Below, one piece after another: positions 22,850 to 40,883 of a stretch of 64,000 nucleotides of DNA. This DNA comes from an uncultured Flavihumibacter sp. (lineage in GTDB: Bacteria; Bacteroidota; Bacteroidia; Chitinophagales; Chitinophagaceae). A program made the position numbers and the translations under genes. The stretch spans positions 987-64,986 of the forward strand of contig CABHOY010000052.1 in the NCBI GenBank assembly GCA_902168105.1, read 5' to 3'. The notes beneath the pieces are model-generated. The model saw nothing but the letters and a program-made list of their open reading frames with translations. It was not told the origin of the DNA and did not search any database. Each line of letters opens with the position of its first letter. Within the stretch, counting starts at the first letter, position 1.

Positions 22850-23665
22850 TTATTCGGTAATGATCTCACATTTAACTTTTGCGCCGGATTCTACTTTCTT
22901 TGCAATGTCAGCGCCTCCTTCTTTAACAATACATACGGAGAAGTTCTCGTCTTCCACTTTCGCCACGGCAATCTTACCTAAAGTCTTCTTTCTGTGCATT
23001 TTCTTGCCGTCTACGGTCAGATCGGTTATTTCGTATACTCTGAACTCATCGTGTTCTTTCACCCCGGCTAAACTGCCCGCAACCAGCAATACGCGGATCG
23101 CGTCTCCACTGCTGCTTTTTTCTTCTATCTGCGCAATGGAAACTGCACTTTTCAGGTTATCGTGTATGAACTTGTCGATCTCAGGCTCCAGTCCTTTCAG
23201 TGCATCTTCAAACGCGGTCTTTCCCCTGCCGGCGCCGGTAAATCTGTTGGACGCGATCTCTTCACCACTGGTCACATCGACAACAGTAAGATCAAACAAC
23301 AGGTCAGATACATTGGTATTGGTGATCCCTAAGGGGAGATTGGACGGTTTTGTTTCTACACTGGCTTTCAATACATTACCGGTTATGATATACTGTGCGC
23401 CTAAAGACTTCGCCTGTGCCAGGGCCCCTGCATCGGGATTAGCCTGTCCTACTCCTGTCTTGATCTGCTCCAGCTTGTTCTTCTCCATCAAAGAAAACCC
23501 TCTCAGTCTCAGGGTAGCATCGTATACTGCGTCCTCTATGGCCGATACATGTTCAGTACCACCAGCGCTTTTAAAAGGTGCTACACCGATCAGGTTCTTG
23601 TTTTGAGCGAAAGCAGATGAGAAAGCAACAATGCCGCATAAAACGGATAATACTCTTTTTGTCAT
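22850..23665 (-). CDS. Secreted CsgG/TolB-N-like fold protein with FlgT-C-like C-terminal domain
   Basis: Signal peptide; IGVAPF...LMEKNKLEQI...LGAQYIITGNV pattern of CsgG/HfaB-like domains; C-terminal GVKEHDEFRVY...GKIAVAKV. Confidence 0.6.
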   Translation of the reverse strand: MTKRVLSVLCGIVAFSSAFAQNKNLIGVAPFKSAGGTEHVSAIEDAVYDATLRLRGFSLMEKNKLEQIKTGVGQANPDAGALAQAKSLGAQYIITGNVLKASVETKPSNLPLGITNTNVSDLLFDLTVVDVTSGEEIASNRFTGAGRGKTAFEDALKGLEPEIDKFIHDNLKSAVSIAQIEEKSSSGDAIRVLLVAGSLAGVKEHDEFRVYEITDLTVDGKKMHRKKTLGKIAVAKVEDENFSVCIVKEGGADIAKKVESGAKVKCEIITE

Positions 23666-23743: not shown

Positions 23744-26700
23744 CTAATTGGCTGGCTGGTCCTGCTTTACAGGTAGAATAATGTTAAACGTCGCGCCCTC
23801 TTTTTCCCGGCTATGGGCAGTGATCAGGCCATTATGTTTATCAATGATCTTCCGGGTGACGGCCAGACCGATGCCGGTACCTTCATATTGGTCTTTCGTA
23901 TGCAAACGCTGAAAGAGCACAAATATTTTATCCAGGTACTTTTCGTCAAAGCCTATCCCATTGTCTGTGATAGAGATACATACAAACGGGCCATCGGGAT
24001 CTGTCTCACTGCCAAACTTTTTCTCCTTCAGGCGTGTAGCGGTAATGTTTATAATGGGCTGGACCTCCTTGCCGGAAAACTTAAACGCATTGCTTAACAG
24101 GTTTTGGAACACCTGTCTTAACTGTCCGGGTACGGCTTCTATCGCCGGCATAGGGCTGACAGTAACTTTTGCGTTCTTTTCATGGATAAGTATTTCAAGA
24201 TCTGAGAGTATTTCCTTTATGATCACTTCCAGGTTCACCTGCTCAAAGAAACTGGCCTGTGATAGACGGGAGAACCGCAGCAGGTCATTGATCAGGTTCG
24301 TCATACGGGAAGAGGAATTAATAATGCGGGTCAGATAATCCACCGCCTTATCTTCCATGTTATCCTGATAACGTTCCTTCAGCATATTCCCGAACATATG
24401 GATCTTTCGGAGCGGTTCTTTCAGGTCGTGCGAGGCGACAAACGCATATTGCTGCAATTCGGCATTACTTGCTTCCAGCTCCTGGTTAGCCCTTTGCAAA
24501 GCAAGTGTGCGTTCCTGGATACGTTGCTCCATGATCTCCGCCGCCATCTTCTGCTCATTGATATCGGTACTGGTACCTACCAGCACACTGGACATGCCGT
24601 CCATATCCTTTTGCACCCGGGTCCTGTGCAGGAACCAGTCATATCTTCCTTCCAGATGCCTGATACGTAATTCCATTGCAAAGTCCAGCTTACCCTTTAC
24701 CGCATGCCGCCAGTTTTCTTCCCAACCCGCGATATCGTCCTTGTGGATCACACTCTGCCACCCTTCCTGTTGCAACTCGTGCAATGACTTGCCGGTATAC
24801 ATAATAAACTGCTCATTGACGAAGTTGACAATCCCTTTCGGGTCCGCCGTCCATAATATGAGCGGCATTGATTCTGCCAGAAAGCGTTTTTCCTCACGGT
24901 TCACGGCTGCCAGTTCCTCCGCATGACGCAGGGTTGTAACGTCCATCATAGACCCCAGCATACGGTAAGGTGTCGCATATTCATCAAGCATCAGGTAACC
25001 ACGGTCCAGTACATGCGCATAGGTGCCATCGGCACGGCGCAATCTGTACCCTTCCGACCACTGACTTTGTTTATTGTTCACAGCCCTTGTGATACTGTTC
25101 CTCACCCGCTCGCGGTCATCAGGATGGATGTTCTCCACCCAGAAAGTACGGCTTCCCGTTTCTTCTCCGGCATGACCATATACTGCGGTAAAGTTATCAC
25201 TCCACCAAACGGTATTCCTGGCAAGGTTCCAATCCCAGACAGTGTCGTTCGTAGCTTTGGACACCAGACGGAAACGTTCTTCGCTCATCGTCAGTTCCCG
25301 TGTTCTTTCCAGTACCTTATGTTCCAGGCCTACATTCAGATTGCGCAGGCTTTCCCTTGCCTGTACCAGTTCATTATAATTACGGCGCAGGCGGTCCTCT
25401 CCATCTTTCTTTTCACTCACATCTATACAGGTGATCACGAGATTACCATCCTGTGTTTTTACACCCAGCATCTCATACCAGTAATCCTGCTCCTTACGCG
25501 TTATATGGAACTCTGTGCGCAACACCGAGCCATGAGTAAACACCTGCGCATATTTTGCGAACAGCCCTTGCTCGAGCAATTCGGGGAAGGTCTGTCTGAT
25601 AGAAGGATGCTCTGCCAATACCACCTCTTTCCCCAGGAAACGCAGCCCTTCACTATTGGCTGCCAGCAACCTGAAATCGGTCATCGCACCTTCGTCATTG
25701 AACACCGGCTTCAATGCCAGTATCACATTCGTGCTGGCATTAAATACTCCCTTCAGCAACATGTCCAGCTCTTTGATAGCTGTAATATCCACAAAGGTGA
25801 TCACCACACCGTCAGTCTGTTTGTCCTGACGGATGTATGGCAGTACCTTCATCAGATACATATTGCCATTACTCAGCACCATCTCTTTCTCCAACGTCTT
25901 CTTATGACTGATCACCGAATGAATATCGTCGATCATGCTGTCCTGCTGGATATTTGTAGAAATATGATTGATAGGGCGTCCTATGTCTGAGGGTATCAGG
26001 TTGATCATGTTTACTGCAGCCGGATTGAACTTGCGGATCCGGAGGTTGGTATCAACAAATACCTGCCCGATGTCCGTACTACGGAAGTAGTTGTCCATAT
26101 CGTCATTCAGTTCCACCAATTCCTTGATCTTCAGCTGATGTTCAGTATTCAGGGTATGCAGTTCCTCATTCAGTGATTGCAGCTCCTCATTACTGGATTG
26201 CAGTTCCTCATTCGCAGAAAGTAATTCCTCATTACTGGACTGTAATTCCTCGTTAGAGGTTTCCAACCCTTCGATGGCCATCTGGAGATTGGTACGGGTT
26301 TCTCCCAGCTCCGCCTCCAGCGACATAATATGTTCCTTTACATCTGCCGGTTGATCATGTGTGTCGGGAGCGTCTCCGGGTATGATCACTTTATCAGGCT
26401 CCTCATTAAATACGATCATGGTGTACTGGCCATTACCGTTTCCGGTACCCGGTCTTATCAACAGGTTGACCAACCTTAACCCCGCCGGCGTATTCATTTT
26501 CACGCCTTTCACCATTGCTTTCTTTTCAGTAGCCCATGCCTGCCTCAACGCGATGTTCAGCGCCATAGACAGATCACCCGGCACCATCTTCAACAGGTTC
26601 AGGTGCAACTTCTTTTCCGGCAGTGAGAGATAGTTTTTATAACTGCCTATCGCTTCCTGGATCTCATATGCTTTATCAATATAAACGGCTGCAAAGCCAA

Positions 26701-28246
26701 AGTCTTCCGCCATCACATCCCGGAATTCTTCCAGGAGGTTATTCAATTTCTTATCTGCAAGACGGCTGTTACCGTTACTGCGCATTTCACGCGTCTGCCG
26801 GATATATTCCAGCGGACTGTAAAGATTGTCGGGCAGTGAACTACGTGTAGTATCTGTTTTCCGGTAGATCTTCCATTTCGAATGCACCTCTTCCAGTCCT
26901 GCACGTATCAGTGAAGCAGATTCACTGGGACCTAGAAAAAGGCATCCGCCGGTATTTAATGCAAAATGAAGGGACGACAATACCTGCCGTTGTAACACAT
27001 GCTCCATATATATGAGCATGTTGCGGCAGGTAACGAGATCGTTCTTTATAAAGGGAGGATCTTTTAAAATATTATGACGTGCAAATACGATCAGCTTCCG
27101 CAGGCGCGGCGCGATCTGGTATTTCTTCTCTTCTTTAAGAAAATACTTCTTCAGTAACAGCGGATCTATATCTTTCACAACACCTGAAGGATAGATACCC
27201 CTGGCCGCAAACTCAATCGCATTACTGTCTATATCAGTAGCAAAGATCTTCACATCCAGCCACTTGTTCTTTTCCTGTAAGCACTGGTCAATCAACATGG
27301 CCAGCGTATAGGCTTCCTCTCCCGTACTACAGGCGGTGACCCAGATCTTCAGAATAGCACCTTCCTCCTTCTCATCAACCAGCTTGCTGATCACATGGTC
27401 CTTCAAATACTGGAAGGCCGATTTATCCCTGAAAAAACGGGTTACGCCGATCAGGAAATCCTTCGCCAGCGCTTTACTTTCCTCTTCACTCTGCCGCAGC
27501 AATTGCAGATATTCTTCAAGGCTCTTTATATTGAACTGCGCCATCCGTTTGGCTATGCGCCGCGTAATGGTTGGAGGTTTGTAGTGGTTGAAATCCTGGC
27601 CGCTATGCTCCCTTACAAGCTGAAAGACCTCCGCAAGCATCTCTTCATCGATCTTCCCGTTAAACACCTGTACAGGCATGTCCTGGATGTAATTATATAT
27701 TTCCGCCGGCATAAATTCCGGTGCCAGTACATAGTCTACATTTTCAGTACCGATCAGGCTGCGGGGCATCCCGTCAAACTTAGCGGTTTCCGGGTCCTGC
27801 ACCATTACCATTCCACCTGCTTTTTTAATAGCGGCTGCGCCTCTTGTTCCATCAGTACCGGTACCCGAAAGGATGATACAGATGGCAGCGCTGCCTTTAT
27901 CTTTTGCAAGTGAAAAAAGGAAGGTATCAATAGCCGTATTAGGCGCCTTCTCGGTAGGTTTCTGTACCAACCGCAGACGTCCCTGCTCTATGATAATTTC
28001 TTTATTATTGGGAATAACGTATACGCAATCAATCTCCACTCCCATATCCTGCTCGACCTCCCTGACCTGCATATTAGTGTGCTTGGATACAAGCTCCACC
28101 AGCAAGCTTTTATAGTCGGGGGACAAGTGCTGAATAATGACAAAGGATAAATTGCCATATTCCGGCATATTATCAAAGAATTCATGGATGGCTTCCAGTC
28201 CACCCGCAGAGGCTCCTATCGCTACTATGTAGTTCGCTTTCTTCAT
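23744..28246 (-). CDS. CheB methylesterase-CheR methyltransferase-coiled coil-multi-PAS-histidine kinase fusion
   Basis: CheB triad intact (GASAGG, IIQHL, GTDG); CheR IGVTRFFRD, WVTACSTGEEAY, IFATDID, CRNMLIY; NEEL heptads; several PAS/PAC; H-box ASHDLKEPLR, N-box QVFQNLLSNAFKF, DNGIG and GTGIGL. Confidence 0.93.
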   Translation of the reverse strand: MKKANYIVAIGASAGGLEAIHEFFDNMPEYGNLSFVIIQHLSPDYKSLLVELVSKHTNMQVREVEQDMGVEIDCVYVIPNNKEIIIEQGRLRLVQKPTEKAPNTAIDTFLFSLAKDKGSAAICIILSGTGTDGTRGAAAIKKAGGMVMVQDPETAKFDGMPRSLIGTENVDYVLAPEFMPAEIYNYIQDMPVQVFNGKIDEEMLAEVFQLVREHSGQDFNHYKPPTITRRIAKRMAQFNIKSLEEYLQLLRQSEEESKALAKDFLIGVTRFFRDKSAFQYLKDHVISKLVDEKEEGAILKIWVTACSTGEEAYTLAMLIDQCLQEKNKWLDVKIFATDIDSNAIEFAARGIYPSGVVKDIDPLLLKKYFLKEEKKYQIAPRLRKLIVFARHNILKDPPFIKNDLVTCRNMLIYMEHVLQRQVLSSLHFALNTGGCLFLGPSESASLIRAGLEEVHSKWKIYRKTDTTRSSLPDNLYSPLEYIRQTREMRSNGNSRLADKKLNNLLEEFRDVMAEDFGFAAVYIDKAYEIQEAIGSYKNYLSLPEKKLHLNLLKMVPGDLSMALNIALRQAWATEKKAMVKGVKMNTPAGLRLVNLLIRPGTGNGNGQYTMIVFNEEPDKVIIPGDAPDTHDQPADVKEHIMSLEAELGETRTNLQMAIEGLETSNEELQSSNEELLSANEELQSSNEELQSLNEELHTLNTEHQLKIKELVELNDDMDNYFRSTDIGQVFVDTNLRIRKFNPAAVNMINLIPSDIGRPINHISTNIQQDSMIDDIHSVISHKKTLEKEMVLSNGNMYLMKVLPYIRQDKQTDGVVITFVDITAIKELDMLLKGVFNASTNVILALKPVFNDEGAMTDFRLLAANSEGLRFLGKEVVLAEHPSIRQTFPELLEQGLFAKYAQVFTHGSVLRTEFHITRKEQDYWYEMLGVKTQDGNLVITCIDVSEKKDGEDRLRRNYNELVQARESLRNLNVGLEHKVLERTRELTMSEERFRLVSKATNDTVWDWNLARNTVWWSDNFTAVYGHAGEETGSRTFWVENIHPDDRERVRNSITRAVNNKQSQWSEGYRLRRADGTYAHVLDRGYLMLDEYATPYRMLGSMMDVTTLRHAEELAAVNREEKRFLAESMPLILWTADPKGIVNFVNEQFIMYTGKSLHELQQEGWQSVIHKDDIAGWEENWRHAVKGKLDFAMELRIRHLEGRYDWFLHRTRVQKDMDGMSSVLVGTSTDINEQKMAAEIMEQRIQERTLALQRANQELEASNAELQQYAFVASHDLKEPLRKIHMFGNMLKERYQDNMEDKAVDYLTRIINSSSRMTNLINDLLRFSRLSQASFFEQVNLEVIIKEILSDLEILIHEKNAKVTVSPMPAIEAVPGQLRQVFQNLLSNAFKFSGKEVQPIINITATRLKEKKFGSETDPDGPFVCISITDNGIGFDEKYLDKIFVLFQRLHTKDQYEGTGIGLAVTRKIIDKHNGLITAHSREKEGATFNIILPVKQDQPAN
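26158..26262 (-). repeat. 21-nt coding tandem repeat giving five (S/A/L)NEEL heptads
   Basis: SNEELQS SNEELLS ANEELQS SNEELQS LNEELHT; ttcctcatt/ttcctcgtt recurs every 21 nt. Confidence 0.85.
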
Positions 28247-28297
28247 TCAATTGTTAACAAATAACCATTTTCATACCAATTTGTACCGTTGCTGGTT

Positions 28298-29821
28298 TCA
28301 GGCCAGTCCCTTCACAATGTATTCCAGAATAAAGTTCCTGAGATGTGAAGCCATAAGCATTTCAGTCTGCTGCCAGGGCAGGGCGGTGTGACGCACGGTT
28401 TGCTGCCAGATGCTGAATGAGTTCCGGGGATGGTACTGAATATTATCTTTTTCAAACTGTACGGCTTCATTAGGATTACCACCCCAATTCACTTCCCTTA
28501 TCACTTCAGGGCGAAAGGCAATAAGGTATTCACCCTTGATCGGTTGTACAGGTATGACCAATATACCACTGGCCAGTTGTGCATATTGGATGGCGGGTTC
28601 ATAAACACCAGGAAGATGCAGCTCCTGCGATACCTGATTGGACTGAGCGCTTTGCAGCCACAGGAACAGGTCTTTCAGGGCGTTCCTGTCGGGCGTCTTA
28701 CCAATGGTTTCCAGGCGCTTGTTATACATCATGGCCACACCCGAAGCATTCAGTAACTGTAGCACATTCACTTCATTACCCAGTAATCCCTGTATCAGAT
28801 CTCCTGCTGTATACACTTGTTCCACCAACCTGGCATGCACCTCATGCAGCTTCGTATGCTCATCCCCTTCTTCCTTATAGTACAGTGACACGATACGCGC
28901 GGCAATGATGTCTGACAACAATTCAAACAATGCCCTGCCCTCATATGGCAGTTGGTATGCGGTGCGATGGTGACAGGAGAACAGGCCCCACAACTGTCCG
29001 TCTTTCAGGATACGACAGGACATAGAAGTCATGATATTCATGTTCTTCATATATTCCAGATGCACGGCCGGCACACTCCGCAGGTTACAGCCTGAAAGAT
29101 CCGTAAAGGCATTGGTCAACGGATTGATAACAGGATACAGGCTAACTGGCACGTAATCCCTGTTGGGGATCATACGGTACGGATTGTGCAGATACATCGC
29201 TCTAGCCTGCCGGGGGATGTCAGATGCCGGGAAAGTTAGTCCGAGGTAGGACTCCATGCCCGGCTCCTGTTCTTCTGCAACAACGGTACCGTTCCAGTCT
29301 TTATCGAATTGGTAAACCATCACCTTGTCATAACCTGACAAAGCCTTCAGTTGCCTGGCCGCTGCCTTACAGGCCTCCGTAATGGTAGGCGCTGCATTGA
29401 TGGCGGCCATAGCATATTTCAGTCGCTGATAGATGCTGATAAACGAGTTCTCCTTCTGCTGTTCTCCCGGCGGCTCTATTTCGAGCAGCATAGACTCCCC
29501 TGACAGGTGTATCACGGCCAGGTAATCTTTCCGGCTAGCGCTGGTAGAAACGGTAAGCGTAAAAGGTAATTTATCTACTAGTCCCTCTTCCAGCTTTTGC
29601 CGCAGTTCTTCCATCTGTGTAGCAGGAATATAATCGGAGAGAGATGTGTCCACCACTTCTGCAGGTGGCAGCCCTAATGCGGCTGAAATATTTTCACTAA
29701 CCTGGAAGATCTTGTAGTCGGTTTTTCTGATGACCAGTAAAAAGCCATAAGGCTGAATGAGATTAATCTGATGCAATGGCACACTCCCACAGAAGGCAGC
29801 GTCAAAATTCTGGTTTTGCAT
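28298..29821 (-). CDS. bphP: Bacteriophytochrome photosensory core only (PAS2-GAF-PHY), no output domain
   Basis: N-terminal Cys11 in FCGSVPLHQINLIQPYG (BV-binding position of BphPs); PASDIP, LRSV..VHLEYM, LWGLFSCHH, tongue WGG...PRNSF; ends just after the PHY helix. Confidence 0.92.
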   Translation of the reverse strand: MQNQNFDAAFCGSVPLHQINLIQPYGFLLVIRKTDYKIFQVSENISAALGLPPAEVVDTSLSDYIPATQMEELRQKLEEGLVDKLPFTLTVSTSASRKDYLAVIHLSGESMLLEIEPPGEQQKENSFISIYQRLKYAMAAINAAPTITEACKAAARQLKALSGYDKVMVYQFDKDWNGTVVAEEQEPGMESYLGLTFPASDIPRQARAMYLHNPYRMIPNRDYVPVSLYPVINPLTNAFTDLSGCNLRSVPAVHLEYMKNMNIMTSMSCRILKDGQLWGLFSCHHRTAYQLPYEGRALFELLSDIIAARIVSLYYKEEGDEHTKLHEVHARLVEQVYTAGDLIQGLLGNEVNVLQLLNASGVAMMYNKRLETIGKTPDRNALKDLFLWLQSAQSNQVSQELHLPGVYEPAIQYAQLASGILVIPVQPIKGEYLIAFRPEVIREVNWGGNPNEAVQFEKDNIQYHPRNSFSIWQQTVRHTALPWQQTEMLMASHLRNFILEYIVKGLA

Positions 29822-29845
29822 AAAGAGTGAATGGGTTAAAAGTTG

Positions 29846-30424
29846 TTACTGCAGGTCCTGTTGCCGTACTGCCCACGATTTGAATTTTAAGAACGTATCG
29901 GCAGCAGCGTCCAGCATTCGTTGCCGTTGTTCTTCACTGCCATTGTATCCCTGAAGGTAGTGCACAAATGTGTCCCAGTAAGATTGAGTATCAGTTCCAT
30001 ATCCGTTGAAAAAGGTCAGCGACTTTGATAATTCAGGAACGGTCAGATTGCGTATCAGTATCTGGCTGATCACCTGTCCGCCCAATGTAGACCCTTCCAG
30101 TACATACATCACGCCCAGGGCCTGTGCCGCATCGGCGATCTCCGGCAGGTCTGTGCTCGTGGCAGGCGGGGTTGCATGCGCACCACTGATAGCGGAAATG
30201 TCGTCAAGTAAAAGAGCAGCCTTCCTCCGTCGTTCAAATCCCCCAGGGAATGAGATATCCATATGAGCAGCAATATGCTGCTCCAGCGGATAATAAAATC
30301 CGTAGAACAGTTCTAATAACCTGACATATTTTTCAGGCGTATTCACATTCTTAATAATGGGGATAAGTACACGTTCCAGCTCCTGGTGCTGTTTGCCCGT
30401 ACGCTCCCTTAACAATTCTATCAT
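29846..30424 (-). CDS. bphO: Biliverdin-producing heme oxygenase
   Basis: LRERTGKQHQELE proximal His and YVLEGSTLGG motif; 24 nt upstream of bphP. Confidence 0.92.
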   Translation of the reverse strand: MIELLRERTGKQHQELERVLIPIIKNVNTPEKYVRLLELFYGFYYPLEQHIAAHMDISFPGGFERRRKAALLLDDISAISGAHATPPATSTDLPEIADAAQALGVMYVLEGSTLGGQVISQILIRNLTVPELSKSLTFFNGYGTDTQSYWDTFVHYLQGYNGSEEQRQRMLDAAADTFLKFKSWAVRQQDLQ

Positions 30425-30500
30425 TGTCTATACAGTTGCTAAGTTGTCGAGAGTAGTTAAAAGTACGGTGAATTAACGTCAGGGCCGTGTGGAAAGATTT

Positions 30501-30950
30501 CTACGGTAGTTGTACCACTGTAAACCAGTAAGTATGCAGCATGCGGGTAAACGCCACCAGATCTGAAAAGTTGGCCGGTTTGATGGTGTAGCTATTAACG
30601 CCCAGCTCATAACATTTTGATATATCCTTTGCTTCCGTGGAGGTGGTCAGGATAATAATGGGTAACCATTTTAGGTTGGCATGTTCTTTTATCTCCCGCA
30701 AAGCTTCTCGTCCGTCTTTACGGGGCATATTCAGGTCCAGCAATATGATACTGGGGAAAGGAAACTTTTCTTCATCTGCATATTTTCCCTGCCTGTTCAG
30801 ATAAAACATCAATTCTTCTCCATTCTCCACAAAACGCAATTCAATGTCAGCACCACTTTCCTCAAATGCCACCTTAATGAGTTCCCTGTCGTCTGCGTCG
30901 TCATCTGCCACAAGTATACATTTCCTGTTACGTAGCACCTTTTTGATCAT
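30501..30950 (-). CDS. Single-domain response regulator, Rcp1/BphR type
   Basis: ADDD acidic pocket, IILLDLNMPRKDGRE, IIILTTS, YTIKP and C-terminal YWFTVVQLP, matching the Rcp1-type phytochrome RR pattern. Confidence 0.9.
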   Translation of the reverse strand: MIKKVLRNRKCILVADDDADDRELIKVAFEESGADIELRFVENGEELMFYLNRQGKYADEEKFPFPSIILLDLNMPRKDGREALREIKEHANLKWLPIIILTTSTEAKDISKCYELGVNSYTIKPANFSDLVAFTRMLHTYWFTVVQLP

Positions 30951-31027
30951 CCAGTTTTAATATTTAACGGCTAAAATTACTTAAATAAACTTGCAAAATG
31001 TTAAGAGAATGGGCAAATTGTGCCTTA

Positions 31028-31054
31028 GGTCCCATTCTCTCTGAGAATGGGACC
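31028..31054. other. 12-bp stem hairpin upstream of the phytochrome cassette
   Basis: ggtcccattctc-tct-gagaatgggacc; no U-tract on either strand. Confidence 0.8.
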
Positions 31055-31149
31055 GTTAAAGGACTTATTAAATTAAATGAAACTTTATTGCTGTGACTGA
31101 AAGTCAGATCTGGGCTTAACAAACAGCACTTTTAATTAGGAAGCTGCTG

Positions 31150-31157
31150 CAAAGATA
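31150..31157 (-). promoter_or_regulatory. -7 box (TATCTTTG), candidate promoter of the RR-bphO-bphP-cheBR-HK cassette
   Basis: Exact TAnnTTTG on the minus strand, 200 nt upstream of the RR start. Confidence 0.5.
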
Positions 31158-31217: not shown

Positions 31218-32708
31218 TCAACGCAGTTTCAACCTCGATTCTATCATACCATTGAAGGAGGCCGGCCCCATGTGTACGACAGGCTCCACCGGACCAGTAC
31301 GCAGTCCTGACGGATGCCCCTTAATGTAATTCAGCGATGCCATAACACAGGTTTCACCCGGATCGCCAAAATCATGTCTTATATCATCTTCCGCCGGTAT
31401 ATCCACCTGCATACCATGGAAATAATCCCCATCTCCATTTGCATTCTGCATATAAAAATTAGATAAGTATACGGTGTATTTGTCGATGCTGATGCCAAAG
31501 AAACCAACCGGTTTGCCATAGGTGTTCGCCCCAACCAGTTTTACCGGCATGTGGGGTTTCAGACTGTTAATAACCAGCTCACTTGCAGATGCAGTACTAC
31601 CACTCACAATAAACACTACCTGCTTCACAGTATTAAGGCCGCCTTTATCGGAGAACTTGAAAGTGTTTGTTGCAACGCTGAAATCCAGGTCTGCATAAGT
31701 GGCCCAATGATCGTTCCACATAACAGGGTTGCCCTGCGCATCACGATACAACTGCTGTTTTAGTATAGGCGCCTGACCGTTCTGCAACAAGTTATTGAAG
31801 TACTCAACATACATCACCTTACCGTTCAGCGAAGCCGGAGCTATTTGATTGATCATATATTCTGCAGACTCTGTAAAGCCGCCACCGTTATATCGCAGGT
31901 CAACTATCAGAGAGGTGACGCCCGCAGTAGTGAACCGCGAAAATGCATTATCTATAGCAGCTTGTGTTACAGGAAGACTGGAGAAACGGCTATACGCAAT
32001 ATATCCTACTTTCTGCCCTCCTGCATTGAGCACTGTATCTTTCAGTACTGCCGATGATGTATAATCCGCTTTTGTCAGCGTTACAGTGCTTGGTACCCCG
32101 ATGCTTTTCTCAACCGTCAGCGTTACAGTGGCTCTATCCAGTGCAGCCATTATAAAGGAACCGGAAGACGCGTTAACGGTAGTTCCATTTACTGTCAGTA
32201 CTTTCATTCCCCTGGTTAGACCAGCGTTAGCTGCAGGAGAAGCGGGATGAACGATATTAATGCGAACGTCGGCATCACCGGCGGCAGAAAGCCCCAGCCC
32301 GAAGTCATCTCCTTTATCGTTCAGGTCAATCGTCCCCTTTCTTCCGCCAGTAAGACTTTCTTCTGTTATGAATGAATATTTTGGATGGTTGGGAAAGCCC
32401 GAATACTCATAAGGCTCCCCGGTAAGAGGATTGATCTTGAATTGTGTAATAGCATAAAGCTCCCGTTGGTAGTTATAGAAAACATCACTACCGGTCGCAT
32501 ACTGCCTGGGTTTAAAGACATCAACTGCCGGTATTGCATCGTACCAGAGATAGATCTGCTGTGCATAAAGATACAGGGAGTCCAGTGTCAGCTGTTCCCG
32601 GCTACCTTCTGCAGGCGTGGGAGGAGGGTCTGACCCGTTATTTTTTTTACAGGCAAACAATAACATGGACAGGAACAATAATTGGATCAGGGAATTTCTC
32701 TTTTTCAC
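31218..32708 (-). CDS. S41 family peptidase lipoprotein with PDZ domain
   Basis: LLFAC lipobox, PDZ HPASPAANAGL, IVDLRYNGGG, STASASE catalytic Ser and TYGKPVG. Confidence 0.9.
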   Translation of the reverse strand: MKKRNSLIQLLFLSMLLFACKKNNGSDPPPTPAEGSREQLTLDSLYLYAQQIYLWYDAIPAVDVFKPRQYATGSDVFYNYQRELYAITQFKINPLTGEPYEYSGFPNHPKYSFITEESLTGGRKGTIDLNDKGDDFGLGLSAAGDADVRINIVHPASPAANAGLTRGMKVLTVNGTTVNASSGSFIMAALDRATVTLTVEKSIGVPSTVTLTKADYTSSAVLKDTVLNAGGQKVGYIAYSRFSSLPVTQAAIDNAFSRFTTAGVTSLIVDLRYNGGGFTESAEYMINQIAPASLNGKVMYVEYFNNLLQNGQAPILKQQLYRDAQGNPVMWNDHWATYADLDFSVATNTFKFSDKGGLNTVKQVVFIVSGSTASASELVINSLKPHMPVKLVGANTYGKPVGFFGISIDKYTVYLSNFYMQNANGDGDYFHGMQVDIPAEDDIRHDFGDPGETCVMASLNYIKGHPSGLRTGPVEPVVHMGPASFNGMIESRLKLR

Positions 32709-32822
32709 CGGGATGGTTTTAAGTTGACTGTAGATAGTACAATCTCATGAAATTACAAAAAAACACCCACTCCCCGGGCGATAGCACATTAAATAAACCC
32801 AGATATTGATAATCAGCACATA

Positions 32823-32870
32823 AGACAAACAAGGGGTGCACCATTCCCATGATGCACCCCTTGTTTGTCT
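32823..32870. terminator. Strong hairpin downstream of hmuY
   Basis: 18-bp stem agacaaacaaggggtgca/tgcaccccttgtttgtct with 12-nt loop. Confidence 0.7.
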
Positions 32871-32959
32871 GTACGATATTACCTGGTGTATTGGTGAAAT
32901 ATAGCTACCGTATCCGGACCTTATATTTCAAACCTGTAGTGATAGTACGATCACGGTTA

Positions 32960-33991
32960 CTATTTGCCGGCTGACTTCACCAGCTTGTATTCAATAACAG
33001 GGTACCCTCTTGTGCCGCCATCGTTCAGTCCCATGCTGACAAATTTCAACTTATAGTAGTTGCCATTGGCGTCTTTTACGATATAGTAGAAGTTCTTGAA
33101 GATACCGTTACCTGTAGTAGCTCTCCAACTGCTACCGATCGCGTCTCGGGTAGATACAAAAGTCTGTGCGGCAATATTTGCCTCCGTAAAATTGTTGTAG
33201 CTCACCACAGCGCTGTCTACTTTCGCAGCAGTTACTCCTGCATACTGATTGATCACCACTAAGTCAGAGAAGAAATAAGGGATCGTCTGCGTGTAATAAG
33301 CTCCATAAGACCAGGCGATGTCCCATTCTGCTTTCTTAGGTTCAACATTTACTGTGTTACTGTTGTCCAGTGAGAAGAAAGTAAAATTGTAACTATTGTC
33401 TTTGCTGATATTAGCAGTTTTGATGGTCGTTTCTTTCAGCTTTGCATACTTCAAAGTATAACCATCGCCATTGCGTGTAACGAGGATCTTATACCAGGTA
33501 GCAGGGTCCGCGACGGATGCATTCTCAGGTTTTACCAGGTATACATGATTGGCGGTCGCTGTAGCAGATACTTCGTCAATCACAGTTTTAGTCAGATCGC
33601 CAAATACATCATCGATCATGCTCAGTGTACCTGCGCCCTGACCAATTGCCATACTAATACCTGCAGTATCGTCAATGTTCACTGCACTGATATCTGTCTT
33701 ACTCAGCTCCACTGCGCTCATAGCAGTAAAACCATTGAGTATGACACGGAACGAAGCGCCTCCATAGAAGCCGAGCGACCAGCTGGCACGTGCTCTTGTT
33801 GCGGTAGAGTCGGAGCTGAAGTCTACGTAAACGGTATTAGGGGAACCAGTACCACCACCGCCGTTCAGCGTTAGCTGAGAACCATCTGAAGGAGGTATCA
33901 CTACGGTGGGATCTTCGTCTTTACTACATGCACTGAATAATCCCGTTCCTATAGCAAGTACGAAGAAAAGTCTGCTGAATTTCATAGCCAT
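32960..33991 (-). CDS. hmuY: HmuY-family heme-binding lipoprotein
   Basis: LFSAC lipobox; NTVYVDFS, WDIAW and YIVKDANGNYYKLKF HmuY motifs; directly downstream of a TBDR. Confidence 0.85.
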   Translation of the reverse strand: MAMKFSRLFFVLAIGTGLFSACSKDEDPTVVIPPSDGSQLTLNGGGGTGSPNTVYVDFSSDSTATRARASWSLGFYGGASFRVILNGFTAMSAVELSKTDISAVNIDDTAGISMAIGQGAGTLSMIDDVFGDLTKTVIDEVSATATANHVYLVKPENASVADPATWYKILVTRNGDGYTLKYAKLKETTIKTANISKDNSYNFTFFSLDNSNTVNVEPKKAEWDIAWSYGAYYTQTIPYFFSDLVVINQYAGVTAAKVDSAVVSYNNFTEANIAAQTFVSTRDAIGSSWRATTGNGIFKNFYYIVKDANGNYYKLKFVSMGLNDGGTRGYPVIEYKLVKSAGK

Positions 33992-34025
33992 CTTTGTTTT
34001 TAATTGTATTTATTTTAATCAATAG

Positions 34026-36125
34026 TTATTTGTTACTGTTCCAGTTAAAACTTAATCCCAGGAAATAAGAACGTCCATACCACATGGGCAAAATGCCTCC
34101 CGCAGTGTGTGCCTGTCCGCTGGTCAAAGTCGAATTATTAATGTTTGTATTATTAAACAGGTTCCTGACGCCGCCATTGACGGTTACATACTTTGTAACA
34201 CTCTTCGTAACTGTAACATCTGCCTGATGGAAAGCTTCTGTCCTGATCTCATGTATAAAAGCAGGTGCATTCGTAGTCGTTACTTCTTCATAAGCCGGAC
34301 GTTCACCATTGAATTTGTAAGAAACATTCAATGCACCACCAATCTTTCTAAAACGATAAGTAATATTGGCATTCACTTCCGGCGTCCAGGTCAATTCCGG
34401 ACTGGGATATGTTTTATTGTATGTCTCATCATCTGCAAACTGGTTATACCGACCTATATAAGACATACCGGCATTCACCTGCAGATTATTCCAGTTCAGC
34501 ATACCACTCAATGTACCGCCGGTGGTTTTAAACTTACTGATGTTCACGTAAGTAGAGGTATCTGAGCCATTGACCGTAGCAATATCTATCCTGTCATTAA
34601 AATCGTTATAGAACCCTGTAGCAGTTACATTAACACGCACGGGGCCTTGCTGTATTGCCTGCCAGCTTACCGACCCTGTAAAGCTGTTTGAATATTCCGC
34701 CTTCAGATCACGGTTTCCTTTTATCGAGTGACTGGCATCAAAGAAATAGAAGTATAATTCTCTCAGGGCAGGCGCTCTGAAACCTCGGGCATACGACAAC
34801 CGCAGGTCCACATTGCTGCGTAGTGCAAACTTCGTATTGATAGACGGGATCACTGGTGGTGCATCGTACACGGAGTTCTTACTTAATCTCAATCCCGGGC
34901 GAATATTCAGCCAGTGTATCGGCTTGATCTCTGCCGAAAAGAACAAGGAGTAATCACTGATGTCAGGCGTACCTAATATCCGCTGACCGGACGAACCATC
35001 CCGACGATATTCAATACCCGGCTGGAATGACCAAACGGGAGACAATTCATATTGAGCCGTACCCCTGAAAAAGATCGTATTGAACTTCGACACATCCTGT
35101 GCTCCTTCATCAGGAGAAAGGGTTTCCGCATTAGTTGTAAAATCTTTGATAGTAGTACGTGTGATCCTTCTGTATTGCTGATAAGAAGCCGTACCATTTA
35201 TACTAAGCCCTTTGTTCAATTGCCACACCGCCTGTGCCTGATGTGTATACCTGTCAGTCAGGTAATGCTGGTCAGTGGCTTTACCATTATCAAAATTGAT
35301 ATCGCCACGGCTGATGATATCTTCATCAAGGTAATCCAGTCGGTACCACACTTTAAAATGATCATTACTATAGCCGAATGAGCCGTTCGCAATCAACTGG
35401 TCCTTCGGTTTCCATGCTTTCTTTCTGCCTGTCAGTGAATCACTCCATCCGCCAAAATCATTGCGGGTAATACCACCTCCTGCGAAGAAGCCTTTGCGTC
35501 CCCATTGAATGCCCAGGTTCTCGTTATGTATACCTTTACCACTGAAAGCCGCATATTCTTTACCCACTGTCTCTTCCTGTATCCTGGCAGTTACTGACAA
35601 TTGGTTACCGCCATGATATTTCTTCGTAATGATATTGATCACACCTGCCAGTGCGTCTGTACCGTATACTACAGACATCGGGCCTTCTACTATCTCAATC
35701 CTTTCTATTGTATTAATATCTATTTGTGTGAGACTTTGCCTGGTGCTGCCTCTGTCTACCAATGGCACACCATCCAGCAATATCTTCACATTTGCGCCTG
35801 ACGTCCCCATGATTTCCACATCAGTTTCTCCCAGTGTAGCATCATTGGAAAAACGTACGCCCAGTTCATTGTCAAGTACACCCAGCACATTGGTAGCTCC
35901 ACGTAATTTCATGTACTCACCGGAGATTGTTCTTACCTGGCAAACAGATTGTTTTAATGATTGCGGTGTATATTGTCCTGTTACCACTACGTCACGTAAA
36001 CGTACTGAATCAGATATAACGGTAGCTGCTGCAGCATTCTTTGCAGATTGCGCCCATGCGCCGTTATACAATGCAATAGAAAGACCCAGCACAATTAGAT
36101 GTGACCTCATAAAGTATAGTAGCAT
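34026..36125 (-). CDS. TonB-dependent heme receptor (HmuR-like)
   Basis: VVVTGQ TonB-box region, IERIEIVEGPMSVVYGTDALAGVINIIT plug, YARGFRAPALRELY, terminal aromatic beta-strand; start may be MRSHL (36110). Confidence 0.88.
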   Translation of the reverse strand: MLLYFMRSHLIVLGLSIALYNGAWAQSAKNAAAATVISDSVRLRDVVVTGQYTPQSLKQSVCQVRTISGEYMKLRGATNVLGVLDNELGVRFSNDATLGETDVEIMGTSGANVKILLDGVPLVDRGSTRQSLTQIDINTIERIEIVEGPMSVVYGTDALAGVINIITKKYHGGNQLSVTARIQEETVGKEYAAFSGKGIHNENLGIQWGRKGFFAGGGITRNDFGGWSDSLTGRKKAWKPKDQLIANGSFGYSNDHFKVWYRLDYLDEDIISRGDINFDNGKATDQHYLTDRYTHQAQAVWQLNKGLSINGTASYQQYRRITRTTIKDFTTNAETLSPDEGAQDVSKFNTIFFRGTAQYELSPVWSFQPGIEYRRDGSSGQRILGTPDISDYSLFFSAEIKPIHWLNIRPGLRLSKNSVYDAPPVIPSINTKFALRSNVDLRLSYARGFRAPALRELYFYFFDASHSIKGNRDLKAEYSNSFTGSVSWQAIQQGPVRVNVTATGFYNDFNDRIDIATVNGSDTSTYVNISKFKTTGGTLSGMLNWNNLQVNAGMSYIGRYNQFADDETYNKTYPSPELTWTPEVNANITYRFRKIGGALNVSYKFNGERPAYEEVTTTNAPAFIHEIRTEAFHQADVTVTKSVTKYVTVNGGVRNLFNNTNINNSTLTSGQAHTAGGILPMWYGRSYFLGLSFNWNSNK

Positions 36126-36370
36126 TAAGTAGCGCTAACGCCTTAGTGTTAGAACAAAAGATCCCTTTGCCGTAATACTACGATAGCAGTACAACGGCCC
36201 ATGCGGATGCATTACCAGTGTTAATGAAATATGTTATTGTATTACACGAACTGCAGCGGAGATTACAGTTATAGTGCAATATTGGCGGAGTAATAATACA
36301 TGCAAAGTAAGCATGCGGCGGACAAATAAGTTTATCTATTCAGGAAATTGATTTACGCGAAAAGGAAAAT

Positions 36371-36688
36371 CTACCTGATCAATTCATATACCTGTTGGAG
36401 CAATACGGCCTCGTGCAACGCTTCTTTCATATTCAACCACTCCTGTTGGGTAAAAGTAAAACTGATATCCCGGCACGGAGAATGTACCACTATCCGCTCT
36501 TCACCATCAGGGAACATCATACTGCAGTCGTAAAATTCCTGGTGCTCCAGTGTTTCATAAAACAACTGGAAATCCTGCGGTGTAAAATTCAGGACCAGGT
36601 TATTGTGCCAGATATATACTGTCTGGCAATTGGCACAATGGCTGATATGAGCCTGTTTCTTAGCGCACAATGTTCTGATATCGCACAT
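36371..36688 (-). CDS. Small Cys/His-rich conserved protein (DUF6686-like)
   Basis: 105 aa; HISHCANCQTVYIWHNN N-terminus; lies inside the heme locus. Confidence 0.65.
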   Translation of the reverse strand: MCDIRTLCAKKQAHISHCANCQTVYIWHNNLVLNFTPQDFQLFYETLEHQEFYDCSMMFPDGEERIVVHSPCRDISFTFTQQEWLNMKEALHEAVLLQQVYELIR

Positions 36689-37012
36689 ATTATTTTTTAT
36701 TTAAGGGTTCAGTTACAAACACAGCACTCCTTACGGAGCGCTGTGCCGGAAATATCTGGCCTGCCGTAGCCGAACACCTATCTGTAACACCGGCTGGCAT
36801 TGAGGATTACTTCACTGAGAAGTTTTCAAGGATAGTAAAATACTTTTTTGGAGCTAGCAAACAATGAACATTTGCAGCAGCATTATTTAGTATGAATCAA
36901 TCACTCTTTACGCAATTCAAAAATAACAACTAGTGTTTATGACGGATGCTCAAATGAGGAAAACGATTTGTCTATTAGGGAAAATATCAAATACCGGACG
37001 TGACCTATAAAA

Positions 37013-37048
37013 AAGAGAGATTAAACGCTCACGCATTTAATCTCTCTC
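37013..37048 (-). terminator. Hairpin after hemS
   Basis: agagagattaaa/tttaatctctct stem with an A-run on the + side. Confidence 0.65.
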
Positions 37049-37085
37049 CAACAGTTTAACAATATTACAAGGCTAAGACCACAAA

Positions 37086-38117
37086 CTATAACGCAGCAGC
37101 CAACACGCGCCATTCTTCCAGTTCAGGATTACCTGGTTTGCGTTTACCGAAGAATTGAGCGATCATCTCACCTGCTGCATCAAACACTTCCAACGATGTT
37201 ACTGTACCGTCTACTGAAGGCTTTTCTACTATCCAGCATTGAGCGATAACATCTGTCTTCAGATGCAAATTAAAATCTTCATCCATTACATTGATCCAGT
37301 TTGGAATTTCAACGATCTTCTGGACAGGACCAGTATGTATCTCAATATTGCCTGGATTGCCGACAAAGACCATGATCTCCAGTCCACTTGCTGAAGCCTT
37401 TTCCAACAGTGTTTTCACACAATCACTACCGGTGCGACGGGAAAACTTCCCTTCTGCCAGTTCCAGCGCACGTACCCTTGAAAGCTTGTGCTTCATCAGT
37501 AAAGGAAAGAAGTCGTGCGTATCTTTCAATGCAGCCCAGCCTTGCAGAAACGCTTCACCATCTGCGTCTTTGTCATTATATACCGGAGCAGGAGGCGCAG
37601 GTGCTACGGTAATGGCAGCAGGCTGCTCTGATGCAGTAAAGTCCGCAACCAGCTTGTCCCATGCCGTCAGGTCCGTCTTATCCACAGCATATATCTTCAT
37701 GATAGCAGTACCCTGCGCATCAAATATCTGCAGCGACTTTTTGAATCCAATGCTATCATCAGTATCTACAGCGAAACCATATTTCCAACGGGAGAAGAAC
37801 ATGCGCAGGTCGATGTCTTTTCCCAGTACGGTACCTACGTGTTTATTTTCTGTATTAATTATTTCGAAAGCGCCTTTGCGCTCTATTACGCAGTGTTCAT
37901 TACGGGTCAGCACCATCACCTTACCCAATGCAGGCATTGCCTGTATAAGGGCCGGGAATTCGTTCTTCAGATGTTTTACAGTACCGCCCGTACAAGCAGC
38001 TACCAGCTCACCTTCGCTGACCTGCAATTGGCTGGCGGCGTCACGGATCCTCACTTTTGGATGCTGTTCGCGAAAAGCCTGCCATTGTTCTTTTAATGTT
38101 GTTACGATTGCATTCAT
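37086..38117 (-). CDS. hemS: HemS/ChuS/HmuS hemin-degrading/trafficking protein
   Basis: Duplicated HemS domains; RIRDAA..L.VSEGELVA, LTRNEHCVIE, HDFFPLL, IEIHTG and QFFGKRKPGNPE motifs. Confidence 0.92.
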   Translation of the reverse strand: MNAIVTTLKEQWQAFREQHPKVRIRDAASQLQVSEGELVAACTGGTVKHLKNEFPALIQAMPALGKVMVLTRNEHCVIERKGAFEIINTENKHVGTVLGKDIDLRMFFSRWKYGFAVDTDDSIGFKKSLQIFDAQGTAIMKIYAVDKTDLTAWDKLVADFTASEQPAAITVAPAPPAPVYNDKDADGEAFLQGWAALKDTHDFFPLLMKHKLSRVRALELAEGKFSRRTGSDCVKTLLEKASASGLEIMVFVGNPGNIEIHTGPVQKIVEIPNWINVMDEDFNLHLKTDVIAQCWIVEKPSVDGTVTSLEVFDAAGEMIAQFFGKRKPGNPELEEWRVLAAAL

Positions 38118-38120
38118 GTT

Positions 38121-38969
38121 TTACAATACTTTTAATGCCTTTGCGGCAGGTGATGAAAATAAGCCCCCGGTAGTGGCAGTAACCACCAGTGGATAATGAC
38201 AGTGCGGATGTTCCAGTACTGCAACATCCACGCCGAAACAGTCTTTAATATGGGCAGATGTGAAAATTTCTTCAACACGTCCCTGTGCATATACATGGCC
38301 GTTCTTTAGTAATAGCAGCTTGTTAGCGTAGGCTGCTGCCAGCTGAAAGTCATGCAGTACAGCTACGACCAGCACACCACAGGCGGCCAGTGTAGTAGCC
38401 AGTTGCAATGACAATTGCTGGTGAAGAATGTCCATTCCTGTGACAGGTTCATCCAACAGCAGCATTTTCCTGCCGGTATAATCCGTCGCCTGCAGATCGG
38501 GTGCTTCCAGCAGTTGTGCCAGCACCCGTGCCATTTGCACACGTTGTTTTTGTCCGCCGGATAATGTCGGATAAGTTCTGTCGCGCAGGTTCTGCACCTG
38601 CATAACTTTTAAGGCATAGTTAATGATCTCTTTGTCTGCGGCAGAAAGATGGGCATTATAAATATAACGACCCATGCTTACCACTTCTGCCACAGTAAAT
38701 GGCTGGTTTAATGTGAGTTGCTGAGACAACACAGCTCTTGTTCTTGCCTGTGTTGCTATCGGCAATGTCTTTAGTTCTTCTCCTTCTATCCTTACGCTTC
38801 CGTTATACTGCATGTACTCTCCCGCTATCACCTTCAATAGCGTCGATTTACCTGCACCATTGGCGCCCATGATCACATATAACTCACCGGCTCCTGCCTC
38901 AAGGCTAACTCCTTCGAGGATCTTCATTTTACCGAGAGAGAGCGAAATATCTTTAACACACAACATCAT
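38121..38969 (-). CDS. hmuV: Heme ABC transporter ATP-binding protein
   Basis: GANGAGKST, LSGGQKQRVQMARVLAQL, LLLDEP and VLHD motifs; ATG overlaps the permease stop (ATGA). Confidence 0.9.
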   Translation of the reverse strand: MMLCVKDISLSLGKMKILEGVSLEAGAGELYVIMGANGAGKSTLLKVIAGEYMQYNGSVRIEGEELKTLPIATQARTRAVLSQQLTLNQPFTVAEVVSMGRYIYNAHLSAADKEIINYALKVMQVQNLRDRTYPTLSGGQKQRVQMARVLAQLLEAPDLQATDYTGRKMLLLDEPVTGMDILHQQLSLQLATTLAACGVLVVAVLHDFQLAAAYANKLLLLKNGHVYAQGRVEEIFTSAHIKDCFGVDVAVLEHPHCHYPLVVTATTGGLFSSPAAKALKVL

Positions 38970-40027: not shown

Positions 40028-40037
40028 TATTATTCCA

Positions 40038-40883
40038 CTATGAGTTCAGCTTACCCGCCAGTTCCTGTACCGCCTGTATCACACGCGGGCCGAAACCAGT
40101 CAGCAGCTGACCATCCATTACGATCACTTTCTTTTGTTTACCTGCAGTTGTTTGCGGAATGCCCTGCACTCTCAGCAGGCCATCCACATCGCCCATGCTT
40201 TTCAATCCCTCGTCAAACATGAGGATCACGTCGGGATTAGCAGTAACCAAAGCTTCTGGTGTCAATGGTTTGAAGTCATTGAAACCAGTAGCTGCGTTCT
40301 GTGCACCAGCTAATGCAATGATCTTATCTAACGGTGTTTCTTTACCTGCGACCATCATAGTACCGGCGCCACGTGCATAGATGAACAATACTTTCTTTGG
40401 TTGTGCTTTTATATGTAATGCCTGTTGTTCTTTATCCAGTTGTTTTACCAGTGCAATCCCTTTTTCAGGTGCTTTCAGGGCAGCAGCCACTTCTGTAATC
40501 AGCTTTTTGGTACCGGCTACGGAGAACTCCTGTTTGATCAGTACTGTTTTTACACCTACGCTTTTAAACTGTTCGATCACTGCCGGTTGTATAAAGTTGT
40601 CTGTAGCCAGGATAAGGTCCGGCTGTAAAGCCAGTACAGGCTCTGCAGAAATATTCCGGTTATGCCCCACTTTCGCCACCTGTTTCATACTGGCAGGATA
40701 AGTGCTCGTTACATCCACACCTACCAATGCACTCTCAAATCCCAATGCACAAACAATCTCGGTAATAGCCCCATTCAGGGATACGATACGCTTAATCCCC
40801 TGTTGCGCGCTAACATTCAGCGCAGTAAACAGGCAAACAGCTAATGATACGACCAATGGGCGTATCTGTATACGATTCATCAT
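40038..40883 (-). CDS. hmuT: Heme ABC transporter periplasmic binding protein
   Basis: RIVSLNGAITEIVCALG, GVDVTSTYP (Tyr ligand region) and LLTGFGPR; start at MMNRIQ. Confidence 0.88.
   Translation of the reverse strand: MMNRIQIRPLVVSLAVCLFTALNVSAQQGIKRIVSLNGAITEIVCALGFESALVGVDVTSTYPASMKQVAKVGHNRNISAEPVLALQPDLILATDNFIQPAVIEQFKSVGVKTVLIKQEFSVAGTKKLITEVAAALKAPEKGIALVKQLDKEQQALHIKAQPKKVLFIYARGAGTMMVAGKETPLDKIIALAGAQNAATGFNDFKPLTPEALVTANPDVILMFDEGLKSMGDVDGLLRVQGIPQTTAGKQKKVIVMDGQLLTGFGPRVIQAVQELAGKLNS

Follow-up and report, generated by a model that had tools for sequence, protein, structure and literature searches.

The locus described here lies in a window of 64,000 nucleotides (nt) from an uncultured Flavihumibacter sp. 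of the Bacteroidota (GenBank assembly GCA_902168105.1, contig CABHOY010000052.1, positions 987–64,986). It comprises four co-directional genes, which encode a response regulator, a heme oxygenase, a bacteriophytochrome and a sensor kinase with N-terminal CheB and CheR domains (Table 1). The four minus-strand open reading frames (149, 192, 507 and 1500 residues) are separated by gaps of 76, 24 and 51 nt. Coordinates, strand and gaps agree exactly with a first-pass annotation made from the DNA letters alone, and Pfam assigns all four products to the families named there. The same annotation had claimed that light sensor and kinase are split between two polypeptides, and this is borne out: the phytochrome is without an output domain and the kinase polypeptide carries its own intact CheB and CheR. 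The pairing of these two genes is the subject of this report.

Table 1. Features of the phytochrome locus, in window coordinates
Feature	Position	Strand	Remarks
Rcp1-type single-domain response regulator	30501–30950	minus	149 residues; Pfam Response_reg, E 2e-19
BphO-type heme oxygenase	29846–30424	minus	192 residues; Pfam Heme_oxygenase, E 4e-19
Output-less bacteriophytochrome, PAS2-GAF-PHY alone	28298–29821	minus	507 residues; Pfam PAS_2, GAF, PHY
Soluble CheB-CheR-PAS-helix-PAS10-PAS-PAS3-PAS4-HisKA-HATPase sensor kinase	23744–28246	minus	1500 residues; Pfam and orthologue alignment
CheB methylesterase, without receiver domain	27698–28225	minus	kinase residues 8–183; Pfam E 7e-52
CheR methyltransferase (CheR_N and S-adenosylmethionine-binding domain)	26897–27637	minus	kinase residues 204–450; Pfam E 8e-52
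'mid' domain, predicted PAS fold	26399–26764	minus	kinase residues ~495–616; predicted local distance difference test (pLDDT) ~80–90; Foldseek
Glu-Glu ladder, candidate methyl-accepting site	26135–26260	minus	kinase residues 663–704, within helix 636–723
PAS_10 domain, of the type typical of CheB-CheR fusions	25781–26098	minus	kinase residues 717–822; Pfam E 6e-28
HisKA and HATPase_c transmitter, predicted phospho-accepting His1273	23765–24439	minus	kinase residues 1270–1494
Conserved proximal upstream block TTTTGCAAnTTTATTTAAGTAATTTTAGCCGTTAAAT	30951–31010	minus	nearly invariant in five Chitinophaga loci
Conserved leader between the S41 peptidase and regulator genes	31027–31157	minus	
12-bp hairpin, arms GGTCCCATTCTC...GAGAATGGGACC	31027–31053		
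TAnnTTTG box TATCTTTG	31150–31157	minus	~200 nt upstream of the first ATG; hairpin lies between
Heme-uptake cluster	31218–40961	minus	directly upstream
Gene for 271-residue protein	22850–23665	minus	78 nt after the kinase gene

The phytochrome matches PAS_2 (residues 13–117), GAF (148–310) and PHY (326–502) and ends five residues past the PHY domain. Residues 7–503 align end to end with photosensory modules of solved structure (E values of 6e-108 to 1e-95). The polypeptide differs from a classical BphP in that no C-terminal effector (HisKA/HATPase, GGDEF or PAS/HOS) was found on it. The NCBIfam BphP equivalog covers it over model positions 7–506 of 622 with 318 bits, below the cut-off of 1040, and a partial match of this kind marks the protein, by its domain content, as a complete photosensory module and nothing more. 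Cys11 is invariant in the two sets of 19 sequences aligned, and residue 253, which precedes the conserved GAF residue His254, is a valine in place of the Cph1-type cysteine. The elements D201-I-P203, H254, H284, W446-G-G and P465-R-x-S-F are invariant. As judged from these alignments, the phytochrome keeps every residue needed for biliverdin at Cys11 and for the predicted photoconversion. It contains the only PHY domain in the genome. Its nearest relatives are Chitinophaga proteins; all of the 120 nearest are 370–516 residues long, and more than 100 clusters of 490–516 residues keep the chromophore and tongue residues together with the same end point.

The kinase combines CheB_methylest, CheR_N and CheR matches in one chain followed by PAS_10 and so belongs to the CheB/CheR fusion family. 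Conservation was assessed over 54 full-length orthologues, and all identities given are means relative to the window protein. The CheB catalytic-triad positions S13, H40 and D132 are invariant, as are 59 of the 247 CheR columns, including A305-C-S-T-G309, E311, D338, D340 and R408-N409; both domains are predicted to be intact with their catalytic residues kept. In PAS_10, 22 of 106 columns are invariant. PAS_3 and PAS_4 matches precede a transmitter composed of HisKA (1270–1329) and HATPase_c (1373–1494), in which H1273, N1382, N1386, D1428-G-G1432 and G1456-G-G1460 (N, G1 and G2 boxes) are invariant. Together, Pfam and the structural model give the kinase at least five PAS-like domains.

Conservation within the kinase peaks outside all of these domains. 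Mean identity is 66% for CheB, 54% for CheR, 58% for PAS_10 and 10–51% for other regions, and it reaches 94% in residues 663–704, where 32 of the 42 columns are invariant. An AlphaFold2 model of residues 455–835, built with 38 orthologues (mean pLDDT of 79), places this stretch on a single 88-residue helix (636–723), in a region that the first-pass annotation had called a coiled coil. The helix follows the 'mid' PAS fold, leads into PAS_10 and bears five Glu-Glu heptads of the NEELQ type, to which we refer as the ladder; the Glu pairs are E666/667, 673/674, 680/681, 687/688 and 694/695. Foldseek matches to the model are tandem PAS-helix-PAS proteins (FixL, DosP, PpsR N-Q-PAS1 and LOV-PAS kinases). 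When compared with the methylation consensus of methyl-accepting chemotaxis proteins (MCPs), [ASTG][ASTG]xx[EQ][EQ]xx[ASTG][ASTG], three consecutive heptads of the ladder match at nine of the ten positions, a level of agreement that occurs nowhere else in the four proteins.

The single-domain response regulator is a stand-alone receiver of the Rcp1 type, most similar to phytochrome-linked regulators; its closest solved structures are RphyB (4zyl), Rcp1 (1i3c/1jlk) and RcpA/RcpB (1k68/1k66), with E values of 7e-31 to 6e-25. The heme oxygenase scores 69.6 bits with its Pfam model (cut-off of 23) and is present as a single copy in the genome. Its fold and its linkage to a phytochrome place it with the BphO enzymes, and from its family it is predicted that it can supply biliverdin.

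The source assembly (8.1 Mb, 97% complete) yielded no MCPsignal match, whereas the control genomes did, and no CheW domain of a CheA/CheW core was found in it. The CheB and CheR domains therefore cannot serve chemoreceptors, and a non-MCP substrate is required. The genome contains several CheR/CheB sets, all tied to kinases or regulators: in addition to the kinase described here, there is a second CheB-CheR fusion of 1328 residues (C13:4101–8087 of the source genome, G000), and two separate CheR-CheB pairs lie next to kinases or regulators (C55:302815–305893 and C30:270064–276036). In this organism, kinases may be a common target of methylation.

Conservation of the phytochrome–kinase pair

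When one genome per prokaryote species was scanned with the phytochrome alignment, 80 loci were recovered, 59 of them from Bacteroidota; start codons of orthologues were called mechanically and the gaps reported are approximate. In all 59 Bacteroidota loci a gene for a phytochrome of about 500 residues is followed at once by a CheB-CheR-PAS10-kinase gene. The genera represented include Chitinophaga, Flavisolibacter, Puia, Taibaiella, Mucilaginibacter, Pedobacter, Sphingobacterium, Parapedobacter, Pontibacter, Rufibacter, Nibribacter and Cesiribacter. The loci from other phyla (Nostoc, Archangium, Gemmata, Methylobacterium and others) contain ordinary fused phytochrome kinases with a regulator downstream. 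The first-pass annotation had proposed that its four-gene order be sought across the Bacteroidota. The pair recurs throughout, but the full order of regulator, oxygenase, phytochrome and kinase is restricted to Chitinophaga, where three further contexts retain it together with the flanking TonB receptor, HmuY, S41 peptidase and ~270-residue protein genes. The regulator is the first gene of the operon, and lies upstream of the kinase, only in Chitinophaga; in about nine loci a single-domain regulator is found directly downstream of the kinase. The heme oxygenase gene is immediately upstream of the phytochrome gene in at least 12 loci, mainly of Chitinophagales, and downstream of it in Rhodoferax. 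Judged by gene order, the conserved unit is the phytochrome and its CheB-CheR kinase, not the four-gene string.

Two unbiased samples of 401 genomes each, one from Bacteroidota (drawn evenly) and one from Pseudomonadota, were used to view the pairing from outside. Among the Bacteroidota genomes 24 contain a PHY domain, mostly in classical proteins of 730–780 residues, and each of the complete output-less phytochromes (in the source genome G000, G063 and G199) is encoded beside a CheB-CheR fusion gene. Only one of roughly two dozen classical phytochrome-kinase genes in this sample, that of G091, has a CheB-CheR match beside it. G063, whose output-less phytochrome likewise belongs to the main clade described below, is the only other genome in the sample with a full-length orthologue of the middle region of the kinase (49% identity). 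In the Pseudomonadota sample, 52 genomes contain a PHY domain and nearly all of these proteins have 700 residues or more; the genes for the two complete output-less phytochromes, in G417 and G797, are each directly preceded by a CheB-CheR-PAS gene with GGDEF-EAL as its output.

The proteobacterial phytochromes form a second output-less family of more than 100 clusters, all of 487–532 residues (Alteromonas, Salinimonas, Rhodoferax, Skermanella and others). In three of the three contexts examined for this family (Rhodoferax, Alteromonas and one metagenome-assembled genome) a CheB-CheR-PAS-GGDEF-EAL gene of about 1510 codons precedes the phytochrome gene with a gap of 0–16 nt or an overlap; over all cases examined in Pseudomonadota the phytochrome lies beside such a gene in five of five. 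The ladder is present in the proteobacterial partners and in that of G199 as well, and one heptad there reads NQEL (a single observation), which recalls, by analogy, the glutamine residues deamidated by CheB in chemoreceptors. Beyond the general family core, no segment common to the kinase and the proteobacterial partners was found.

Some of these loci have features of their own. The G091 operon (L119, 4963–11986) encodes a 1215-residue CheB-CheR-PAS10-kinase, a 739-residue BphP kinase after a 3-nt gap, a regulator and a heme oxygenase; this two-kinase pairing may reflect a stage that preceded the loss of the kinase part from the phytochrome. In G417 (L087, 236–4695) the CheB-CheR-PAS part (1058 residues) and the GGDEF-EAL part (423 residues) are encoded separately, 11 nt apart, whereas the relatives are single proteins of about 1510 residues. 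The two parts may be genuinely separate, or the break may stem from a frameshift or from an error in the sequencing. G199 (L091, 4195–10100) has a divergent GAF-PHY protein of 486 residues without a PAS_2 match, whose gene faces away from a heme-oxygenase-like gene and from that of its 1233-residue CheB-CheR-PAS partner; the last 260 residues of this partner match no output domain. Two further candidates were rejected as intact output-less phytochromes. L089 (7527–15138, G482, Pseudomonadota) has a truncated 447-residue PAS2-GAF-PHY module followed by a stand-alone GGDEF gene, just after MotA/MotB-like genes, and the next gene encodes a ribonucleotide reductase interrupted by an intein with a LAGLIDADG domain. 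L092 is a PAS2 domain split from a GAF-PHY-kinase.

In the phylogeny, the output-less phytochromes of Bacteroidota form a main clade that has 100% branch support and has been vertically conserved over a long time. Its neighbours in the tree are Cph1/BphP-type modules of cyanobacteria, myxobacteria and alphaproteobacteria, and it lies apart from the classical phytochromes of Bacteroidota. The proteobacterial proteins and that of G199 are long branches elsewhere in the tree, and their placement is uncertain. A quick tree required three changes for the output-less state; an approximately unbiased (AU) test, however, is compatible with all CheB-CheR-linked modules forming one clade (p = 0.71, not rejected), and the constrained tree scores better. 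Independent origins of the output-less phytochromes are thus unsupported and convergence is not claimed.

Across the loci compared, the pair persists in two phyla, three gene arrangements and two output chemistries. This persistence argues for functional coupling between the phytochrome and its CheB-CheR partner, a conclusion that we consider well supported by the comparative genomics.

Possible routes of signal transfer

The reading that we favour, with modest confidence, is that the phytochrome, once loaded with biliverdin, controls in trans a kinase that adapts by methylating itself. The holo-phytochrome would bind the kinase non-covalently, most likely at the PAS/long-helix/PAS10 segment or at the kinase core. 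Autophosphorylation at His1273 would then depend on whether the bound phytochrome is in its red- or far-red-absorbing (Pr/Pfr) state, and so would the transfer of the phosphoryl group to the Rcp1-type response regulator. Within a dimer, the tethered CheR would methylate the five invariant Glu-Glu pairs on the 88-residue helix of its own or of the other subunit, and the receiver-less CheB would reverse this. Methylation would then reset the gain of the kinase, providing adaptation or memory in the manner of a chemoreceptor and dispensing with MCP, CheA and CheW. Chemoreceptors use a pentapeptide tether for their methylation enzymes; here the fusion of the enzymes and their putative substrate would replace it. 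We put forward more tentatively, as a possibility that we hold to be somewhat doubtful, a generalization of this scheme to both phyla: an ancient, MCP-free photosensory system in which a detachable light-sensing subunit docks on a self-methylating scaffold, the ladder stores a reversible record of illumination and the output is either a kinase, in Bacteroidota, or a cyclic di-GMP (c-di-GMP) enzyme, in Pseudomonadota.

Several observations weigh against phytochrome control of a self-methylating kinase. CheB-CheR-ladder-PAS10 proteins occur in 119 of the 401 Bacteroidota genomes, mostly without a phytochrome; the ladder and its enzymes thus appear to be a general feature of the family, and no phytochrome docking site is marked yet. 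A segment specific to the phytochrome-linked kinases was not identified, the 'mid' and 'PASx' regions matching orthologues only. The strict ten-residue MCP consensus is unmatched, the three heptads each falling one position short. Most loci have no response regulator nearby, and the regulator of the window has a paralogue of 67% identity in another operon.

The part that all phytochrome partners have in common, whatever their output, is CheB-CheR-PAS-ladder-PAS, and a CheB without a receiver domain needs some other control of its esterase. Both points would fit a route in which light acts via the methylation enzymes: the phytochrome would bind CheB or CheR, or shield the ladder, and the methylation level would carry the signal to the output, be it kinase or GGDEF-EAL. 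However, the CheB-CheR-ladder module is widespread without a phytochrome, and we regard this route as unlikely.

Alternatively, the two genes might be co-regulated neighbours with separate inputs. The phytochrome would then bind an unlinked partner in a light-dependent manner, in the style of RpBphP1-PpsR2, and the kinase would sense other cues through its PAS-like domains, of which it has at least five. There are known output-less photoreceptors whose action consists in binding to a repressor (RpBphP1-PpsR2 and AppA-PpsR). Against this stands the adjacency of phytochrome and partner in 59 of 59 Bacteroidota and five of five Pseudomonadota loci despite rearranged order and orientation, with gaps that are short or genes that overlap; such persistence would be unusual for unrelated functions, and we judge separate inputs to be improbable.

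A third alternative casts the phytochrome itself as the substrate of the tethered CheR and CheB, with methylation tuning its photocycle or dimerization. While this would explain why an output-less sensor always accompanies methylation enzymes, the phytochrome has no MCP-like methylation motif and its Bacteroidota and proteobacterial families share no conserved Glu/Gln pair, whereas the invariant ladder of the partner is a far better candidate. We rejected the phytochrome as methylation substrate on these grounds and consider it highly improbable. The idea that the phytochrome is the decaying remnant of a classical phytochrome kinase, left without present function by fission or truncation, can be dismissed almost entirely. 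True fission and frameshift cases do occur (L089 and L092), but against decay stand the uniform clusters with their common end point and the fully supported, vertically conserved main clade.

Upstream region and neighbouring genes

The first-pass annotation had pointed to a TAnnTTTG box upstream of the operon. The box is present (31157–31150), but the motif is no more frequent in the window than expected by chance (35 observed versus 46.5 expected). This lack of enrichment, together with the distance from the first ATG and the position before the strong hairpin, makes it weak evidence of a promoter, and it was rejected as such. Scans for sigma-70 promoters and terminators gave results no better than chance. 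Conservation in the five Chitinophaga loci is far higher than that of the box in a block that lies within 55 nt of the ATG; in one of these loci the whole intergenic gap measures 78 nt, and this proximal block is more likely than the TAnnTTTG box to be the putative promoter and leader of the operon. The pairing of the hairpin in the conserved leader is kept via compensatory changes in C. pinensis and C. agri, and the leader has a folding z-score of -2.7 and no match to any Rfam family. It could be a terminator of the upstream gene or a regulatory leader.

The heme-uptake cluster on the same strand consists of genes for a periplasmic binding protein, an FecCD permease, an ABC ATPase, HemS/ChuX, a TonB-dependent receptor, HmuY and an S41 peptidase, in that order. 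The last three are found ahead of the phytochrome operon in three further Chitinophaga contexts as well, and heme acquisition and biliverdin supply may be linked. The 271-residue protein encoded downstream of the kinase has a signal-peptide-like N-terminus and, as its sole Pfam match, a weak one to FlgT_M. Its gene has its own TAAATTTG box 28 nt before the ATG. The same position is held by a gene for a 262–271-residue protein in three other Chitinophaga loci, and this gene may be a fifth member of the locus. The regulator paralogue (C56:43841–47187 of the source genome) lies between a gene for a 485-residue protein and one for a 477-residue protein that starts with a receiver-like sequence; cross-talk between this paralogue and the phytochrome kinase is possible.

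Relation to known systems

In classical bphO-bphP-(bphR) operons (DrBphP, Agp1, PaBphP and Cph1-Rcp1) the oxygenase, the PAS-GAF-PHY module with its N-terminal cysteine, the HisKA/HATPase transmitter and the Rcp1-type regulator are all like those described here. The differences are that sensor and kinase are separate in the present locus and that the kinase starts with CheB and CheR and carries about five PAS domains. In RpBphP1-PpsR2 and AppA-PpsR, photoreceptors act by binding a PAS/Q-helix/PAS protein. The PAS-helix-PAS segment of the kinase resembles PpsR N-Q-PAS1, although the Foldseek match is weak (E of ~1e-7, with a low TM-score); in addition, the partner in those systems is a DNA-binding repressor, and RpBphP1 retains a PAS/PAC-HOS output module. 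The closest parallel in layout is provided by sensory rhodopsin and its transducer Htr in haloarchaea, in which an output-less photoreceptor acts in trans on a partner whose long helix bears methyl-accepting Glu pairs and whose adaptation is brought about by CheR and CheB. The photoreceptor fold is another one here, the proteins are soluble rather than membrane-bound, the transducer forms one chain with the kinase and the two enzymes, and there is no CheA or CheW.

Methylation enzymes linked to a sensor kinase in place of an MCP have precedents. One is RsbM of Bacillus cereus, a CheR-like enzyme whose target is a signalling helix in the kinase RsbK (PMC4574943); in Pseudomonas putida, the cfcABC cluster links CheR- and CheB-type enzymes to a sensor histidine kinase (PMC4951495). 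Both resemble the present kinase in this linkage and differ from it in that the enzymes are separate, a photoreceptor is absent and the kinases are membrane-bound CHASE3/GAF hybrids. Fusions of cheB and cheR have been counted in a genome survey (PMC8396549), and CheB/MeTRC are listed among the kinase input domains of Azospirillum (PMC4618731). The catalogued CheB/CheR fusion proteins have the same CheB-CheR-PAS-ladder-PAS10 core, and the 1500-residue kinase is a member of this family. Ppr of Rhodocista centenaria, a fusion of PYP, a bilin-binding region and a kinase, is reported to connect to the chemotaxis pathway (PMC2993699). It resembles the present system in linking a phytochrome-related photoreceptor to chemotaxis-type components, but it is not a split sensor and is not known to include a CheB-CheR fusion.

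The first-pass annotation stated that it knew of no characterized system with this architecture. In agreement with this, a full-text literature search, which was not exhaustive, did not turn up the pairing: none of the papers found connects phytochromes with CheB-CheR fusions or studies the function of such fusions, which appeared only as survey counts or table rows. All of the parts come from known families, and it is the split sensor with a fixed, methylation-equipped partner of which we found no description in the literature searched.

Phytochrome signalling is understood as a sensor driving a fused output. A clade that has a fixed partner instead would show the signal leaving the PHY domain in trans, and a natural two-part red/far-red switch for optogenetics would follow. 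The pair also offers a tractable entry to the unstudied CheB/CheR fusions, with an input (light) that is known and easily controlled, and a direct test bed for receptor-style methylation adaptation on soluble kinases and c-di-GMP enzymes in bacteria without chemotaxis machinery. It suggests that non-phototrophic soil Bacteroidota measure red/far-red light and adapt to it. Self-methylation under phytochrome control, if true, would be the first function for CheB/CheR fusions, which are present in ~30% of the sampled Bacteroidota genomes, and the cross-phylum system, if it exists as outlined, would be a soluble bacterial counterpart of sensory rhodopsin-Htr.

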